Assembly (NCBI GenBank): GCA_963849635.1
Contig: CAWKIA010000025.1
Span: forward strand, 196,194-260,193
Length of the DNA: 64,000 nucleotides
DNA from: an uncultured Chloroflexia bacterium
GTDB taxonomy: Bacteria > Chloroflexota > Chloroflexia > Thermomicrobiales > UBA6265
Direction of reading: 5' to 3'
Shown here: piece by piece, positions 16,879 through 56,164 of the stretch
Layout: each line of letters opens with the position of its first letter
Numbering within the stretch: the first letter of the stretch is position 1
Position numbers and translations under genes: made by a program
The notes under the pieces: model-generated
Told to the model about the DNA's origin: nothing
Database searches by the model: none
The model's input: the letters and a program-made list of their open reading frames with translations, nothing else

Positions 16879-16945
16879 CGAGACGTGAGACGTGAGACGC
16901 GAGACGTGAGTACTTCGTCGTTGCTCCCGTCTCACGTCTCACGTC

Positions 16946-16950
<5 letters not shown>
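16879..16950. repeat. Hairpin-forming tandem heptamer repeat in the coxS-coxL spacer
   Basis: CGAGACGTGAGACGTGAGACGCGAGACGTGAG, a 17-nt loop, then CCCGTCTCACGTCTCACGTCTCACG. The arms are reverse complements, giving a stem of about 22 bp. Confidence 0.7.
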
Positions 16951-17722: not shown

Positions 17723-17766
17723 AATCCTGCCGGGCGAGTATCGGACTTCGTCATTCCCCACCCCGG

Positions 17767-17912
17767 CGTCATCCTGAGCGTGCGAAGGATCTTGGCGCGT
17801 CAGCGCCTTCGTGCTCGTTGGGGAAGACGGGCATCACGTATTCCGAGTGGCGTCGGGGTCGGCGGCAAAGGCCGCAGAGCGGCCAGGATCCTTCGCTCCG
17901 CTCAGGATGACG
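17767..17912. mobile_element. MITE-like element, copy A (about 146 bp, 25-bp terminal inverted repeats CGTCATCCTGAGCGtgCGAAGGATC)
   Basis: The left arm at 17767-17791 and the right arm at 17887-17912 are near-perfect reverse complements. The ends are shared with copy B at 46942-47089. Confidence 0.6.
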
Positions 17913-17985
17913 ATGGTGGCGGGGCGCCTTCCCAGCGTTGGGCAGTCGATGGCCTAGTGGGGCTGCCGTGGCATGGTGCGCTGCG

Positions 17986-18060
17986 ACCTGCGAGGCGGGA
18001 ACCTCCGGGAGCGGGGCGACCGGGCGCGCTACAACCTGCGAGGAGGGCCCTCCGGGAGCG
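17986..18060. repeat. 27-bp direct repeat, two copies 48 bp apart: ACCTGCGAGG(c/a)GGG(aa/cc)CTCCGGGAGCG
   Basis: Copies at 17986-18013 and 18034-18060, in the roughly 800-bp non-coding region upstream of the cox operon. Confidence 0.6.
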
Positions 18061-36108: not shown

Positions 36109-36115
36109 ACGGAGT

Positions 36116-36180
36116 TTCAAGTTCCAAGAAGTGAGGCGCAAGTCACTTGGACCTTGAGACTTGGAACTTGAGACTTGGAA
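36116..36180. repeat. Hairpin-forming tandem repeat in the ilvB-ilvN spacer (GAGACTTGGAACTT twice, plus inverted AGTTCCAAG)
   Basis: TCAAGTTCCAAG ... CTTGGACCTTGAGACTTGGAACTTGAGACTTGGAACTTGA. Confidence 0.6.
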
Positions 36181-36205
36181 CTTGATTCTCGTCTAGGAGT
36201 TTGAG

Positions 36206-43958: not shown

Positions 43959-45092
43959 CTACGCACTCTGCGCCAGGGCCGCAATGGCCTGGGTTGCTGC
44001 GGCTCCGAATCCTTGCTCGTCGATCGTCCGTCCAGCGTCGTTCACGCCAGCCGAGACGACAAACCACCGACCATCTGCCCGTTGCAACAGCCAGGTAAGC
44101 ACGAGAACTCCAGGCTCGGACCCGCCCTTATAGCCGACAATCGGCCAAACGGAGCGATCGATGAGCGCACCCGGATTGAGCTGAAGTACCTCCCGTAGCG
44201 GCAGTAGCCCAGGTTGGGTGGACTGTTCGAGCAGGTATGCCATCGCGGCGCACATATCAGCGGGGCTGGCAAACCACTCCACCGAGTCGATAAGCGTCGG
44301 GCTCACGAAACTGGCGCCATCGACAATCGTCATGCCGTCCGCGGCCGCTTTGATTTCACCATCGAGCATCGCTCGACGCTCGTCCGGCCCGGCGCTGATA
44401 TACGCCTGCTGGCGCTCAGGCGTGAGCACCGTCTTGATCGCGAACAACTCTCGCGTTGAGAGCATCGGAATCATGAGAGAGCTATCGGCGTGGCCCATCG
44501 TCGCGACCATAGCCTCGACGTTTTCGCGACCCAGCGTGAAGAGCAGGTGATCGGTCGCGGTATTGTCGCTCTGCGAAATCATGACTTCGGCGAGGTAGCG
44601 AACTGAATACGCAGTTCCCGCTGGGGCATAGTGCAGGTCGCCGGAGGGCATACTCCGGTAGGCATCATCGATCGCGATTTCGTCGTCCCAACTCAGCTCA
44701 CCAGCCGCGATCTGGCGACCCAGCTCGCCCAGGATGTACAGCTTGAAAACCGACCCGATCGCCAATGGCACATCGGCGTTTAACTCATGGACTGGTGTGC
44801 AGTTGGGCCCCGAAATCTCGGCCGCGAGCAAACCAACGCTCGCGCCGAAACTTGAAAGTCCGGAGTCGACCTCATTCCAACTTTTTGGCGCGGCTGGTTG
44901 AAGCACCAACCCGATGATCAAATGCTTCGGCGTATCGTCAACGTCGATTCGCAGAGCGAATGCCGCACCGGTCCCCTGAATAGTTACCTGCGCAGATAGA
45001 TCGGTTGCATTGGGAGCAACCTCTGTCGGAATCCAGGGACCGGTGGCCTGCAGTTGCGCAGCGATCTCAATGAACTGATCAAATGGCACCAC
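43959..45092 (-). CDS. Class-A beta-lactamase-like serine hydrolase (probably extends to about 45362 with frameshifts)
   Basis: S-x-x-K (GSVFK), SDN, and K-G-G (YKGGSEPG) motifs. A plausible signal peptide MRSYSRSIAHVVLISVIVSSLSVAAGV is in a different frame upstream (ORF 45138..45383), which points to frameshifts in the 5' part. Confidence 0.6.
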   Translation of the reverse strand: MVPFDQFIEIAAQLQATGPWIPTEVAPNATDLSAQVTIQGTGAAFALRIDVDDTPKHLIIGLVLQPAAPKSWNEVDSGLSSFGASVGLLAAEISGPNCTPVHELNADVPLAIGSVFKLYILGELGRQIAAGELSWDDEIAIDDAYRSMPSGDLHYAPAGTAYSVRYLAEVMISQSDNTATDHLLFTLGRENVEAMVATMGHADSSLMIPMLSTRELFAIKTVLTPERQQAYISAGPDERRAMLDGEIKAAADGMTIVDGASFVSPTLIDSVEWFASPADMCAAMAYLLEQSTQPGLLPLREVLQLNPGALIDRSVWPIVGYKGGSEPGVLVLTWLLQRADGRWFVVSAGVNDAGRTIDEQGFGAAATQAIAALAQSA

Positions 45093-45488
45093 CTGGATGA
45101 AAGATGGATCAAAGGTCGCGCTATAGGCGCTCCGGCGTCAGTTCCTCGCCTTCGCCATTGAGTAGAGCAAGCACCCAGGAAACTGCTGGCCTACTGGGGT
45201 TTGCAGAAACGCCTCCAGGTCGCCCGCGACCGGAGAAGCGGTTGGAGATGAAACTGGAGTCACCTGTGCCGAAATGAGCCTCACACCGGCTGCAACGGAC
45301 AACGACGAGACGATCACTGAAATCAGCACAACATGCGCAATCGACCGGCTGTACGACCTCATACGATTGCTCCCTCGCTTCAACGGTGAAACGAACGGAC
45401 TTTGCCGGGATCCGCGGATTCCACGGTATGAGCAAGGCGAGCGCTAAAGCGGCCACCGGCAGACTGGTCGACGGTGGGGATGGCGTAG

Positions 45489-46384: not shown

Positions 46385-46870
46385 CTAGCTTTCGATTCGC
46401 TTGATCACGACCTTTTGCTGCCCGGCTGGCGTGGAGAAGTAGACCTCTTGCCCGGGCCGCTTGCCGAGCATTGCCTGCCCCATCGGCGATTCATTGGAGA
46501 TGTAACCCAGGGCAGGCTTGGCCTCGATGGCGCCGACGATCCGGTAGGTCTCCTCTTCTCCGTCGAAGTCGACGACGACTGTGGTCCCGACTCGGACGTA
46601 TCCGCTTGAAACAGACGACGCCTCATCAACGAGGACTGCGTTACGGAGCATTCCCTCAAGGTCGGCGATCCGCTTCTCGTTCATCGCCTGATCGTGGCGG
46701 GCGGCATCGTAGGCGGAGTTCTCGCGCAGGTCGCCGTGCGACCGTGCTTCCGCCACCTGGGCGATGATCTCAGGGCGGCGCACCTCGCGCAGCTCTTCGA
46801 GTTCGGCTTTCAGCCGCTCCAATCCGTCTTTGGTCACAGGTACTTGCCGGGTGTCCACTGGAACCTCCAA
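46385..46870 (-). CDS. greA: Transcription elongation factor GreA
   Basis: VPVTKDGLERLKAELEELREV...HGDLRENSAYDAARHDQAMNEKRIADLE. Confidence 0.9.
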   Translation of the reverse strand: MEVPVDTRQVPVTKDGLERLKAELEELREVRRPEIIAQVAEARSHGDLRENSAYDAARHDQAMNEKRIADLEGMLRNAVLVDEASSVSSGYVRVGTTVVVDFDGEEETYRIVGAIEAKPALGYISNESPMGQAMLGKRPGQEVYFSTPAGQQKVVIKRIES

Positions 46871-46880
46871 AACTTGCGGA

Positions 46881-46914
46881 ATTCGGCGTTCGGCGTTCGG
46901 CGTTCGGCGTTCGA
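46881..46914. repeat. Tandem heptamer repeat (TTCGGCG, four copies) just upstream of greA
   Basis: TTCGGCGTTCGGCGTTCGGCGTTCGGCGTTCGAG. Confidence 0.8.
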
Positions 46915-46941
46915 GACTATTGCACCGGCGAGCTGCGTCCT

Positions 46942-47089
46942 TGTCATCCCGAGCTTGTCGAGGGATCTAGAGAGAGGCGGCGTTCCGATGTGCCGCCGTG
47001 TGCACGAGCGCGATCGCGTTTTCTCTGAGGCCGGGGCTTCGTCAGGGCATCGTTCCCTTCGAGATCCCTCGACAAGCTCGGGATGACAG
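46942..47089. mobile_element. MITE-like element, copy B (about 148 bp, perfect 27-bp terminal inverted repeat TGTCATCCCGAGCTTGTCGAGGGATCT)
   Basis: The left arm at 46942-46968 is the exact reverse complement of 47062-47088. Same GTCATCCYGAGC...GGATC ends as copy A. Confidence 0.6.
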
Positions 47090-47188
47090 GTGGCAGGCTG
47101 GCTCGGGATGATCGGCTGACCGCTGACGGCTGAACGCTGGCGGCGGCTGTTGGCCAAGAGCGGACGCTTGACAGCGGAAAGCTGACGG

Positions 47189-47638
47189 TTATTTCACTTC
47201 GAATGTCGCTTCGATCTCGACGGCAATCTGGCCGGGGAGGGCGACGAAGCCGACGGCGGAGCGGGTGTGGCGCCCGGCGTCGCCGAAGACCTCGACCAGG
47301 AGGTCGGAGCAGCCGTTGATAACCTTGGGCTGATCGCCGAAATCGGGCGCCGAATTCACCATTCCGAGCACTTTCACGACCCGCGTTACCCGGTCCAGCG
47401 TGCCGAGCGCGTCCTTGACCGTCGCGATGATCTGCAGTCCAACCTCGCGCGCGACGGCGTAGCCCTCCAAGATGGTCAGGTCGGACCCGACCTTACCGGT
47501 CGGAGCGGATCCACTCGGGCCGGTCCCTGAGATGAAGAGGAGGTTGCCGGTCTGGACGTAGCGGACGTAGGTCGCGATCGGTTTGACCGGCGCGGGCAAG
47601 TCAATTCCGAGTTCGGTAATTCTGGCATCGAACGACAT
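47189..47638 (-). CDS. RidA/YjgF-family reactive-intermediate deaminase
   Basis: PAPVKPIATYV...GQIAVEIEATFEV are typical RidA motifs. Confidence 0.85.
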   Translation of the reverse strand: MSFDARITELGIDLPAPVKPIATYVRYVQTGNLLFISGTGPSGSAPTGKVGSDLTILEGYAVAREVGLQIIATVKDALGTLDRVTRVVKVLGMVNSAPDFGDQPKVINGCSDLLVEVFGDAGRHTRSAVGFVALPGQIAVEIEATFEVK

Positions 47639-47728: not shown

Positions 47729-48938
47729 TTAGCCCTTCCCGAGGACGCGCTCCATGCGCACCAACGTCTCTGGCGAGCAGTTCATCGGAGGTGGCAAACG
47801 AGAGGCGGACGTAGCCCTCACCGGCGTCGCCAAAGGCGTTGCCGGGGACGAGGGCGACGTGGGCTTCCTTCAGCATGTGGTCGGAAAACTCCATCGCGGA
47901 CATTCCTGTGCCGCGGATGTCCGGAAAGGCATAGAACGCGCCCTCGACACGGGGGCAGGTGATCCCTTTCAGGGCATCGAGACCGTCGCAGACCATGATC
48001 CGGCGACGATCCCAGGCGGCGACCATCTCGCCGATGAACTCCTGCGGGCCGGTCAGGGCGGCGACTCCGCCCGCCTGGGCGAACGAGGTCGCACAGGTGA
48101 CGGAGTGGCTGTGGACCTTGGCGATTTGATCGATGTAGGCCCGAGGTCCGGCCACATAGCCGAGGCGCCAGCCAGTCATAGCGTATGCCTTGGAGAGACC
48201 GTTGAAGGTCAAGGTCCGGTCGAGCATCCCCGGCAACGAGGCGATGGTCGTGTGAGTGTGACCGTCGTAGAGGATTTTCTCGTACATGTCGTCGGCGAAG
48301 ACGAGCAGGTCGTGCTTGGTGGCGACATCGGCGATGGCGCGTAATCTCGTCGTTCGACATGACATGGCCGGTTGGGTTGCACGGAGAGTTGAAGAGGATG
48401 CCGCGTGTGGCGGGAGTCACGGCGGACTCCAGCAGTTCCCGCGTGACCTGCCAGTTCTGGTCCCCAGAGAGGGTCACTGGAATTGCACGGCCACCAGCCA
48501 CCTCGATCATTGGAACGTAAGAAACCCAGGCCGGTTCCAATACGAGGATATCGACCCCCGGCTCGGCCAGGGTCAACATCGCCTGGAAGAGCGCCGCCTT
48601 GCCGCCCGGAGTGACGATGATCTCGGTTGCAGGGTCGTACTCGACGCCATTGTCGTTCTTGAGCTTGGCGGCGATGGCTTTGCGCAGGGCAGGGGTGCCG
48701 GCGGAGGCGACGTAGTGGGTATCGCCGGAGTTCATGGCGTCCGCGGCGGCCTGGCGGATGTGGGCCGGGGTGATAAAGTCGGATCGCCGCCACCGAGATC
48801 GATGACATCGATACCCTGAGCCTTGAGCTGGCGCGCCTTGTCGGAAACCGCCAGCGTCGGCGAGGGAGCCAGGTCGCGTACTCGGGATGCAACGAAGTCG
48901 TCCGCCCGTCGACGTGCGGCGGTTCCACTGGTCTGCAT
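47729..48938 (-). CDS. Class I/II (aspartate) aminotransferase, broken into at least four frame segments
   Basis: N-terminus LAPSPTLAVSDKARQLKAQGIDVIDLGGGDP in ORF 48732..49007. Then HYVASAGTPALRKAIAAKL...NSPCNPTGHVMS in ORF 47818..48735. Then LVFADDMYEKILYDG...TFNGLSKAYAMTGWRLGY (PLP Lys) in ORF 47601..48365. The true C-terminus ETLVRMERVLGKG* is in yet another frame. Confidence 0.75.
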
Positions 48939-49889: not shown

Positions 49890-49994
49890 CGAGACGTGAG
49901 CCGTGAGCCGTGAGAACGGACGAAAGTCCCCTCGGTTTCAGTGGCTCGCGACTCTCTTCTCGTCACTCACGTCTCACGTCTCAATTCTCACGAC
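49890..49994. repeat. Hairpin-forming heptamer repeats in the groES-groEL spacer (GAGACGTGAGCCGTGAGCCGTGAG ... CTCACGTCTCACGTCTCA)
   Basis: Arms at 49890-49919 and 49959-49994 are imperfect reverse complements built from the same CGTGAG/GTGAGAC units seen in the coxS-coxL spacer. Confidence 0.65.
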
Positions 49995-49997
49995 TAA

Positions 49998-55555: not shown

Positions 55556-56164
55556 ATGTCCGAGGCACGGCGACGGTGGATTGGCATTGGTATCGCCATG
55601 GCGCTGATCGGAGTGGCGACAATCGGAGTTGTCTCTTCGCGGGCGCAAGATGCCACTCCTGTTGCCCAGGAGCAGGTCTCTGTCAGCGCCGAACACTCTG
55701 CCCTCATTCACACGGGCAACTGCGAGACGCTCGACCCGAATCCGCTCGCGCTGCTGGCTAGCGTCATCTTTGCAGGGTCCGAGGAAGACGACGGAGCAAC
55801 TCCGGTTGCCGAGGGCTCGCCGGAAGCTGGGACCGCGATGGGCTCGACCACGGCAATCGAGAGTGGTCATAGCACGACGAACGTGCCGTTGTCGCTGGCC
55901 GATATCCTGGCTGCAGAGCACGCTATCATTGTCCACCTCAGCCCCGAGCAGGCTGATGTCTATGTCACTTGCGGCGCAATCGGCGGCGAGCCCGACGCAA
56001 ATGGCGACCTCTTTATCGGCTTGCGGGAGCAGAACGGCTCTGGCATCGCCGGCATAGCCTGGCTGCACGACAACGGCGACGGCGCCTCGACGACAGTCAC
56101 GATCATGATCGCGTCCCTGCTCTCAGAGGACGCGAGTGGCGAGGAGGCCACGCCGGCGGCATAG
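55556..56164 (+). CDS. Secreted hypothetical protein with two internal repeat modules
   Basis: Strong RBS GAGGAGGG. Signal peptide MSEARRRWIGIGIAMALIGVATIGVVSSRAQDA. The two modules are ALIHTGNCETLDPNPL... and AIIVHLSPEQADVYVTCGAIGGEPDANGDLFIGL. A GC hairpin follows at 56196-56226. Confidence 0.6.
   Translation: MSEARRRWIGIGIAMALIGVATIGVVSSRAQDATPVAQEQVSVSAEHSALIHTGNCETLDPNPLALLASVIFAGSEEDDGATPVAEGSPEAGTAMGSTTAIESGHSTTNVPLSLADILAAEHAIIVHLSPEQADVYVTCGAIGGEPDANGDLFIGLREQNGSGIAGIAWLHDNGDGASTTVTIMIASLLSEDASGEEATPAA

Follow-up and report, generated by a model that had tools for sequence, protein, structure and literature searches.

A short inverted-repeat element lies between the co-directional genes ridA and greA in a 64-kb stretch of bacterial DNA (contig CAWKIA010000025.1, positions 196,194 to 260,193; the whole stretch is called the window below), which GreA homologues place in Chloroflexota. 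The element is bounded by the 27-mer TGTCATCCCGAGCTTGTCGAGGGATCT on the plus strand and the same 27-mer on the minus strand, with 93 nt in between (Table 1); the two differ at no position, no such match is expected from shuffled sequences, and the inverted repeat reaches 30 nt at 97% complementarity. The 161-nt stretch around the element folds, as DNA, into a single long hairpin with a dG of -49.7 kcal/mol (z = -6.8). The insert itself amounts to 147 bp between the flanks ...gcgtcct and ggtggca..., and a direct repeat at the junctions is absent. An earlier reading of the letters alone (the sequence-only reading) had described a miniature inverted-repeat transposable element (MITE)-like copy together with a TTCGGCG tandem array, a partial third terminus and GCTGAC-type repeats, and each of these features was recovered: the array holds 4.6 copies, and the partial terminus reads GCTCGGGATGA at 47101-47111, or ATCATCCCGAGC on the minus strand at 47101-47112.

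Table 1. Repeats and genes around the ridA-greA element, with the second hairpin pair of the window
Feature	Position	Strand	Description
greA	46385..46858 (likely; open reading frame 46385-46870)	-	GTG start at 46858 after GGAGG, as in homologues
Heptamer array, greA-proximal	46882..46913	.	TTCGGCG x4.6, 100% matches; separate repeat class
Left hairpin unit (copy B)	46942..46968	+	Tag TGTC; stem ATCCC-GA-G / C-GA-GGGAT; loop CTTGT; tail CT
Spacer between hairpin units	46969..47061	.	93 nt; without similarity to copy A and without GIY-YIG remnant
Right hairpin unit (copy B)	47062..47088	-	Same as left unit, inverted; head-to-head, tags outward
Half copy (5' arm only)	47100..47112	-	gATCATCCCGAGC; 24-25 nt 5' of right hairpin start, same strand
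Heptamer array, ridA-proximal	47113..47144		GCTGACC type x3.6 (CGTCAGC on minus strand), period 7/14
ridA/YjgF-family gene	47189..47638	-	Immediately upstream of greA in every relative examined
Copy A	17767..17912		Head-to-head pair, tags CGTC; hairpins 17768-17791 (+) and 17887-17911 (-)
Possible half copy beside copy A	17749-17757		cGTCATTCC

The site was compared with five syntenic contigs carrying genes for an aminotransferase, RidA, GreA, a methyltransferase and a beta-lactamase-like protein, with GreA identities of 85-95%. None of the five has a hairpin at the ridA-greA site, and the pair is therefore a lineage-specific insertion. The spacer measures 25 nt in L225 (GreA identity 87%; L numbers denote fetched loci), 26 nt in L226-L228 (85%), 70 nt in L230 (90%) and 167 nt in L229 (95%), compared with 330 nt in the window. 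The ancestral spacer was about 25 nt long, from which it follows that the two genes probably once formed one operon, and the hairpin pair entered the spacer in the lineage of the window only.

Exactly four full hairpins are present in the window, i.e., the copy B pair between ridA and greA and the copy A pair, for a chance expectation of at most 0.04 matches. Similarity between the two copies is confined to their ends of about 25 nt, and the stems differ by a compensatory change, with ATCCC/GGGAT in copy B and ATCCT/AGGAT in copy A. The spacers are unalignable (global z = 2.0 and 0.6; local z = -0.6 and 0.6), and a common origin of A and B as copies of a single element was rejected on account of these unrelated interiors. 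The spacers were also considered as decayed GIY-YIG genes, a candidate that was dropped as well, the best E-value from hmmsearch --max being 2. The spacer length is the same in both pairs, with 95 nt between the 25-nt cores (17792-17886; 46968-47062). The 119-aa open reading frame (ORF) neighbouring copy A yielded one short homologue only and no site comparison. Beyond copy A, at 17985-18060, a direct repeat of about 28 nt (acctgcgagg.gg..cctccgggagcg) occurs in two copies about 48 nt apart, within an 800-nt intergenic region upstream of a CoxS-like gene.

Anatomy and spread of the hairpin

Each end of the element is a hairpin in its own right, with the formula TGTC-AT-CCY-GA-GC[loop]GC-GA-RGG-AT-CT. 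Read on the GTCAT... strand, the unit consists of the tag (C/T)GTC, a stem, a short loop and the tail C(T). The nine stem positions are A-T, T-A, C-G, C-G, Y-R, G·A, A·G, G-C and C-G, of which two (G·A and A·G) are always non-Watson-Crick. The loop has 3 nt and is of the C-GNA-G type, most commonly CGAAG, CGCAG or CGTAG, with 5 nt (CTTGT) in copy B.

The stem covaries over hundreds of copies, and its pairs were counted in 94 non-redundant hairpins from loci picked by protein rather than by motif. Stem pair 3 was found as TA in 53, CG in 30, GC in 8 and AT in 2 hairpins; pair 5 as TA in 70, CG in 20 and AT in 3; and pair 8 as GC in 77, AT in 10 and CG in 4. At stem pairs 3, 4, 5 and 8, Watson-Crick pairs make up at least 97%, with one G·T among them. 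The tag and the first tail base are almost constant at protein-chosen loci, where positions -4 to -1 read T in 63, G in 68, T in 67 and C in 68 of 68 units, and position +1 is C in 66 of the 68; the window tags conform with TGTC...C in copy B and CGTC...C in copy A.

The search pattern for the 25-nt hairpin, GTCATCCYGAGCN{3,4}CGARGGATC, matched 104 stretches in IMG/VR and at least 120 stretches in one-genome-per-species bacterial contigs. Judged by record titles, the 25-mer occurs in at least 15 phyla, the groups represented being Patescibacteria, Acidobacteriota, Pseudomonadota (alpha, beta, gamma), Verrucomicrobiota/Kiritimatiellia, Bacteroidota, Rhodothermales, Bdellovibrionota, Chloroflexota, Omnitrophota, Gemmatimonadota, Bacillota, Planctomycetota, Nitrospirota, Cyanobacteriota, Synergistota and Armatimonadota, and the isolates that carry it include Hymenobacter and Acidicapsa. 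Queries of the literature with the letters of the hairpin as text brought up unrelated primer matches or nothing. The hairpins are single or paired, and pairs within 200 nt are mostly head-to-head (59, vs. 13 tail-to-tail and 6 direct). Spacer lengths form a continuum between 0 and about 250 nt, and the head-to-head spacing has a second mode at 250-420 nt that is due to hairpins flanking a GIY-YIG gene; in L168, where the head-to-head interior spans 498 nt, no credible protein is encoded. The sequence-only reading had held that base-for-base conservation of the whole structure in distant relatives would argue for a functional RNA rather than a mobile relic. What was found is divided: the structure is not conserved in place, while the 25-nt hairpin recurs nearly base for base across phyla at non-orthologous sites.

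An RNA element, i.e., a long stem-loop within the ridA-greA mRNA with a role in termination, stability or processing and thereby in the regulation of greA, could explain the strong fold of the minus-strand spacer RNA (-132 kcal/mol, z = -4.4) and the position between two co-directional genes that lie 25 nt apart in relatives; repetitive extragenic palindromic (REP) sequences of E. coli are known to influence mRNA stability (PMC12306157). However, the site is not conserved in relatives, and single hairpins show no bias toward the transcribed strand (52 as >M> vs. 43 as <M<, with crude gene calls), so that hairpin orientation is independent of the direction of transcription across loci. Neither a T-tract terminator nor a minus-strand promoter-like site was found in the spacer on the greA strand, where the sequence-only reading had suspected an effect on greA expression. 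A search of the whole window at Rfam gathering thresholds was empty, and an E-value search of 46800-47250 gave a spurious miRNA-precursor match only. The stem is almost without G·U-type pairs, and SsnA, the Neisseria nuclease introduced below, is reported not to bind its motif as RNA (PMC11893778). An RNA element is thus unlikely, and the missing strand bias, terminator, promoter and Rfam match favour an element acting at the DNA level, for which a secondary effect on ridA-greA co-expression is possible.

Reciprocal association with a GIY-YIG nuclease gene

The hairpin and a small nuclease gene retrieve each other. Starting from the motif, 5 of the 120 listed genome loci hold an ORF of about 95 aa that is flanked by hairpins within 100 nt, namely L109 (Cyclobacteriaceae), L117 (Kiritimatiellae), L169 (Hymenobacter glaciei), L200 (Terriglobia) and L203 (Chloroflexota), and in a sixth, L125, a GIY-YIG domain that is part of a fusion lies about 280 nt from a hairpin. 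The ORFs of L203, L200, L117 and L169 were all assigned to PF01541 (GIY-YIG) in a Pfam scan; that of L109 has a degraded N-terminus. The hairpin of L117 is the exact 25-mer of the window, GTCATCCCGAGCTTGTCGAGGGATC. Starting from the gene, an alignment of four of these partner proteins retrieved 80 metagenomic loci with 52-74% identity, and 41 of these protein-selected loci have the family-specific hairpin pattern no more than 300 nt from the gene. A generalised tandem-G·A pattern raised the number to 65 of 80 within the same distance, with hairpins on both sides in 40, and gave 200 matches over the 80 loci vs. 0 in shuffled sequences. Typically, a plus-strand hairpin ends 10-32 nt before the gene and a minus-strand hairpin starts 14-44 nt after it. 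The partner proteins have 92-96 aa with Tyr6, Tyr16 and Glu63, and this nuclease of about 95 aa is the only product whose gene is repeatedly enclosed by hairpins.

The gene-bearing units of L267 (about 290-830) and L287 (about 1850-2400) are 94% identical over 430 nt within unrelated flanks, the similarity beginning and stopping a few nt beyond the hairpin tails, which hints that the gene-bearing unit may move as a block. The sequences just outside both hairpins of L203 (3300-3715) are mutually reverse-complementary (gaaccaaacacccccc ... ggggggtgtttggttc), and this unit either lies inside a larger palindrome or has an inverted repeat extending past the tag.

These results bear on two explanations in which the element is mobilised by a transposase. 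A classical MITE would be an internally deleted DDE-type insertion sequence (IS), with 27-bp terminal inverted repeats (TIRs) bound by the transposase in trans. The perfect 27-bp inverted repeat around about 150 bp, the second window element with similar ends and the empty orthologous site in relatives all agree with it, and like classical MITEs such as the Neisseria Correia element, the insert is small, non-coding, intergenic, bounded by inverted repeats and polymorphic in presence or absence. However, there is no target-site duplication (TSD), no conserved interior (those of A and B being unrelated) and no parent IS with a transposase. Each "TIR" is self-complementary and covarying and is also found alone, in both orientations and at spacings of 0-250 nt, whereas the only recurrently enclosed gene encodes the 95-aa GIY-YIG nuclease. 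A classical MITE is accordingly very improbable. The term "MITE-like" thus holds for the form, that of a short, gene-less inverted-repeat insertion at a site empty in five relatives, with gene-bearing units elsewhere, but fails for the identity, given the self-folding REP-type ends, the lack of a TSD, the unrelated interiors and a GIY-YIG gene in place of a transposase gene.

The second explanation is a REPIN, in which a REP doublet is moved by a RAYT; RAYTs are Y1 HUH transposases of the IS200/IS605 type. Both are head-to-head tagged doublets that are intergenic, lack a TSD and have a variable spacer, and both come with a single small, repeat-flanked gene for an enzyme that acts on single-stranded DNA (ssDNA), the so-called "REPtron" layout. 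REPIN-RAYT systems of Pseudomonas and E. coli, however, combine a GTAG tag with an HUH-Y1 enzyme, whereas a TGTC/CGTC tag is combined with GIY-YIG here. Searches with eight RAYT/TIRYT queries found Y1 homologues in just 2 of 311 loci (L151 and L190), more than 1.1 kb from the hairpins and unflanked by them, and Di Nocera et al. 2013 (PMC3733652) likewise report that no Y1 gene flanked by CGTC repeats was found. A REPIN is accordingly very improbable.

Half copies, heptamer arrays and other repeats

The sequence-only reading had taken the density of repeats, the partial terminus beside the right hairpin included, as a sign of repeated insertion or abortive excision. Half copies of the 5' arm, however, recur in the family: of 517 hairpins, 56 have one at most 40 nt upstream on the same strand, vs. 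7 downstream. Among the 52 non-redundant cases, the half copy usually comprises 12 nt (GTCATCCYGAGC) and stops at the loop. Its start precedes that of the full unit by 17-28 nt (mode 20-21), and the 6 nt preceding both copies match in half of the cases. This match, together with the spacing, identifies the half copy as a tandem duplication of about 20 nt that covers 5' flank and 5' arm; the duplicated block takes in 7-9 nt of the 5' flank together with the 5' arm and reaches as far as the hairpin apex. The half copy of the window starts 24-25 nt before the full unit, within the family range. It is therefore a family hallmark, a duplication recurring in 52 unrelated cases, and neither evidence of a third insertion nor a relic of an abortive excision. 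The consulted parts of PMC3733652 and PMC11893778 contain no description of such a flank and 5'-arm duplication. We infer that it could possibly originate from nicking on the 5' side of the tag, with a subsequent change of template at the apex of the hairpin.

The heptamers, which the sequence-only reading had included in the repeat hotspot of the element, belong to an independent class. The relatives L229 and L230, which lack hairpins, carry heptamer arrays of the CGTCAGC and GCTGAYC types in the ridA-greA spacer. The unit of the ridA-proximal array, CGTCAGC, follows the ridA stop codon in L229, the position of the greA-proximal array is taken in both relatives by arrays of units other than TTCGGCG, and both units and copy numbers differ among relatives. 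Further hairpin-free arrays lie in the window at 16880-16950, 36113-36185 and 49891-49995, with no hairpin within about 800 nt; they take the form of inverted pairs (GAGACGT x4.4 / CTCACGT x3.9; GAGCCGT x3.4 / CTCACGT-type; ACTTGAA-type). Because they are present in element-free relatives and elsewhere in the window, the heptamers are a separate class rather than debris of the element, and they appear to form a genome-wide repeat class of their own. Across the fetched loci (2.15 Mb, L001-L310; TRF), period 7 is the commonest, with 234 arrays vs. 66, 74 and 83 for periods 6, 8 and 9. Arrays near hairpins number 48 vs. 13.5 for random positions (3.6-fold), a control that is confounded, as both features are intergenic. 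The candidate explanation of the heptamers as arrays of the CGTCA tag was dropped, since units near hairpins elsewhere are diverse and arrays exist without hairpins.

This variability is what replication slippage or recombination at a repeat-prone hotspot, working without dedicated machinery, would produce: the spacer is hypervariable among close relatives, and the heptamer arrays vary between them in unit and copy number. For the hairpins, in contrast, the same 25 nt are found identically in hundreds of unrelated loci across phyla and are tied to one protein family, and the chance expectation for the window is at most the 0.04 matches given above. Slippage is effectively refuted for the hairpins, so that as an account of the element it has next to no probability, and it is plausible for the heptamer arrays only.

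Some further features of the window were recorded. The aminotransferase gene upstream of ridA (47729-48938, minus strand) is split into four frame segments (-3, -2, -3, -1) by three frame changes near 48775, 48347 and 47770, whereas its counterpart in L226 is one intact 402-aa gene (83-86% identity in the three main segments); the split gene is either a pseudogene or the result of an assembly indel error. The beta-lactamase/ORF12-like gene (43959-45329, minus strand) has an ORF of 377 aa vs. 468 aa in relatives, and the tblastn match runs on upstream of the ORF start without a change of frame, which suggests an in-frame stop or a different start. A cluster of GC-rich tandem repeats of 15/18 nt (CGGCGG...-type), probably within a coding region, occupies 752-989. 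A tRNA/tmRNA search of the window found none, and look-ups with the exact RidA and GreA proteins gave no record.

Relation to Ssn-type repeats and significance

The closest described system is that of Neisseria, for which Chenal et al. 2025 (PMC11893778) is followed here. SsnA, a single-domain GIY-YIG nuclease of 94 aa with the catalytic layout Y6/Y17/E64, binds the NTS, CGTCATTCCCGCGMAVGCGGGAATCYRG, in its ssDNA form and cleaves it a few nt 5' of the tag. The NTS hairpin arises only in ssDNA, binding by SsnA is sequence- and strand-specific, cleavage needs three nt 5' of the palindrome and binding needs the C just 3' of it; across bacteria, ssn genes are typically flanked by Ssn-related motifs (SRM). 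The present hairpin shares with the NTS the (C/T)GTC tag, a stem starting with AT and an invariant C right after the palindrome, so that the conserved tag and tail bases are those critical for cleavage and binding by SsnA. Both are strand-oriented, mostly intergenic, many-copy hairpins that flank a gene for a single-domain GIY-YIG protein of about 94 aa, and the residues Y6/Y16/E63 of the partner proteins stand at nearly the same positions as those of SsnA in a protein of nearly equal size. The differences are that the stem here contains two tandem G·A mismatches (GAG...CGA), that the tail is CT rather than CYRG, and that the host belongs to Chloroflexota, with the 25-mer present in at least 15 phyla; this variant is known from sequence alone.

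A second point of comparison is given by the CGTC-tagged REPs of Di Nocera et al. (PMC3733652), which comprise the families CGTC-1 to CGTC-4, Neisseria dRS3 and Rickettsia RPE-4/RPE-6. These have a CGTC or TGTC tag, a stem of 8-9 bp beginning with A-T and T-A, a loop of 4-5 nt and a tail of 3 nt, and they form head-to-head dimers without an associated transposase. The unpaired tag, the start of the stem, the short loop, the short unpaired tail, the prevalence of head-to-head dimers and the lack of any adjacent Y1 transposase are common to both, and the loop CTTGT of copy B resembles CTTGA, as back-translated from the peptides listed for CGTC-3/4. However, the stems of those families are near-perfect, and that survey threw out repeats with more than one stem mismatch, whereas two are always present here, and the loop here is mostly 3 nt rather than 4-5 nt. 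The survey reported CGTC repeats in five phyla, with Chloroflexota and Acidobacteriota not among them, compared with the at least 15 phyla found here. The hairpin thus belongs to a CGTC/TGTC-tagged superfamily of which dRS3 and NTS are the best-studied members, while its tandem-G·A stem lies outside the definitions of SRM and CGTC-REP given in the two papers.

The observed anatomy and covariation of the hairpin, its spread across phyla, its reciprocal association with GIY-YIG genes and its absence at the orthologous site point to the same reading. The element is in good likelihood a gene-less head-to-head pair of TGTC-tagged REP-like hairpins that is cognate to an Ssn-like GIY-YIG nuclease family, and the most fitting description is that of a gene-less copy of an Ssn/NTS-type repeat system rather than of a relic of a classical transposon. 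By analogy with SsnA, a cognate GIY-YIG nuclease supplied in trans from elsewhere in the genome may bind the ssDNA hairpin and cut it 5' of the tag, for which the duplication on the 5' side and the missing transcription-strand bias give indirect support only; this cleavage and the mechanism of spread are the parts of the reading that we infer.

Several results weigh against the reading and have to be set beside it. The GIY-YIG gene is absent from the 64-kb window, and none of the 104 viral loci from IMG/VR holds the nuclease gene. The orientation of the hairpins around the gene varies, the tags pointing inward in L109, L267 and L287. NCBIfam gives no model for the partner proteins, Pfam PF01541 being their sole assignment, and their best PDB sequence match is a weak one to UPF0213. 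A single hairpin unit reaches only -2.5 kcal/mol (z about -0.4) in nearest-neighbour calculations, no better than shuffled sequences, and the support for the stem therefore comes from covariation and not from predicted energy. The published SRM search pattern, HGTCWYN(0-2)YYVSBRHN(0-5)WNVSBRGN(0-2)RNCYNB (PMC11893778), matches none of the four window hairpins, none of the 80 GIY-YIG loci and not the family consensus; an NTS control does match, and the lone match in the window, at 55963, is unrelated. The mismatch falls exactly at the S/B positions that are held here by the tandem G·A, which argues that the hairpin is a distinct variant with its own GIY-YIG clade. Finally, we know of no one who has demonstrated by what mechanism such repeats multiply, the Neisseria system included.

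For the organism, the insert has turned what is a 25-nt ridA-greA junction in relatives into a structured spacer of 330 nt, which may or may not uncouple the two genes. For annotation, recognition of the hairpin accounts for many small ORFs that are spurious and for many of the contig breaks in metagenome-assembled genomes, some of its matches lying at contig ends. The hairpin variant is missed by the published pattern, and yet it is found in most major phyla of bacteria and has a large GIY-YIG clade as its partner. To our knowledge, Ssn nucleases were the first site-specific endonucleases described that act on ssDNA only, and the variant points to a wider catalogue of enzyme/site pairs, which would be of use for ssDNA tools. 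The duplication of flank and 5' arm offers a clue to the in vivo cut site and to copying. A bolder proposal, which is tentative and on balance doubtful, is that the hairpin and the gene of about 95 aa together form a minimal self-propagating ssDNA element of about 390 bp that passes horizontally among at least 15 phyla, keeps its 25-nt ends nearly unchanged and sheds gene-less pairs such as the present one; a moving gene-bearing unit of this kind would fit the 94% identity of the L267 and L287 units in two contexts. If this were true, the duplication of about 20 nt could be the footprint of a nick-and-copy mechanism, and it would provide a first handle on how Ssn-type repeats multiply.

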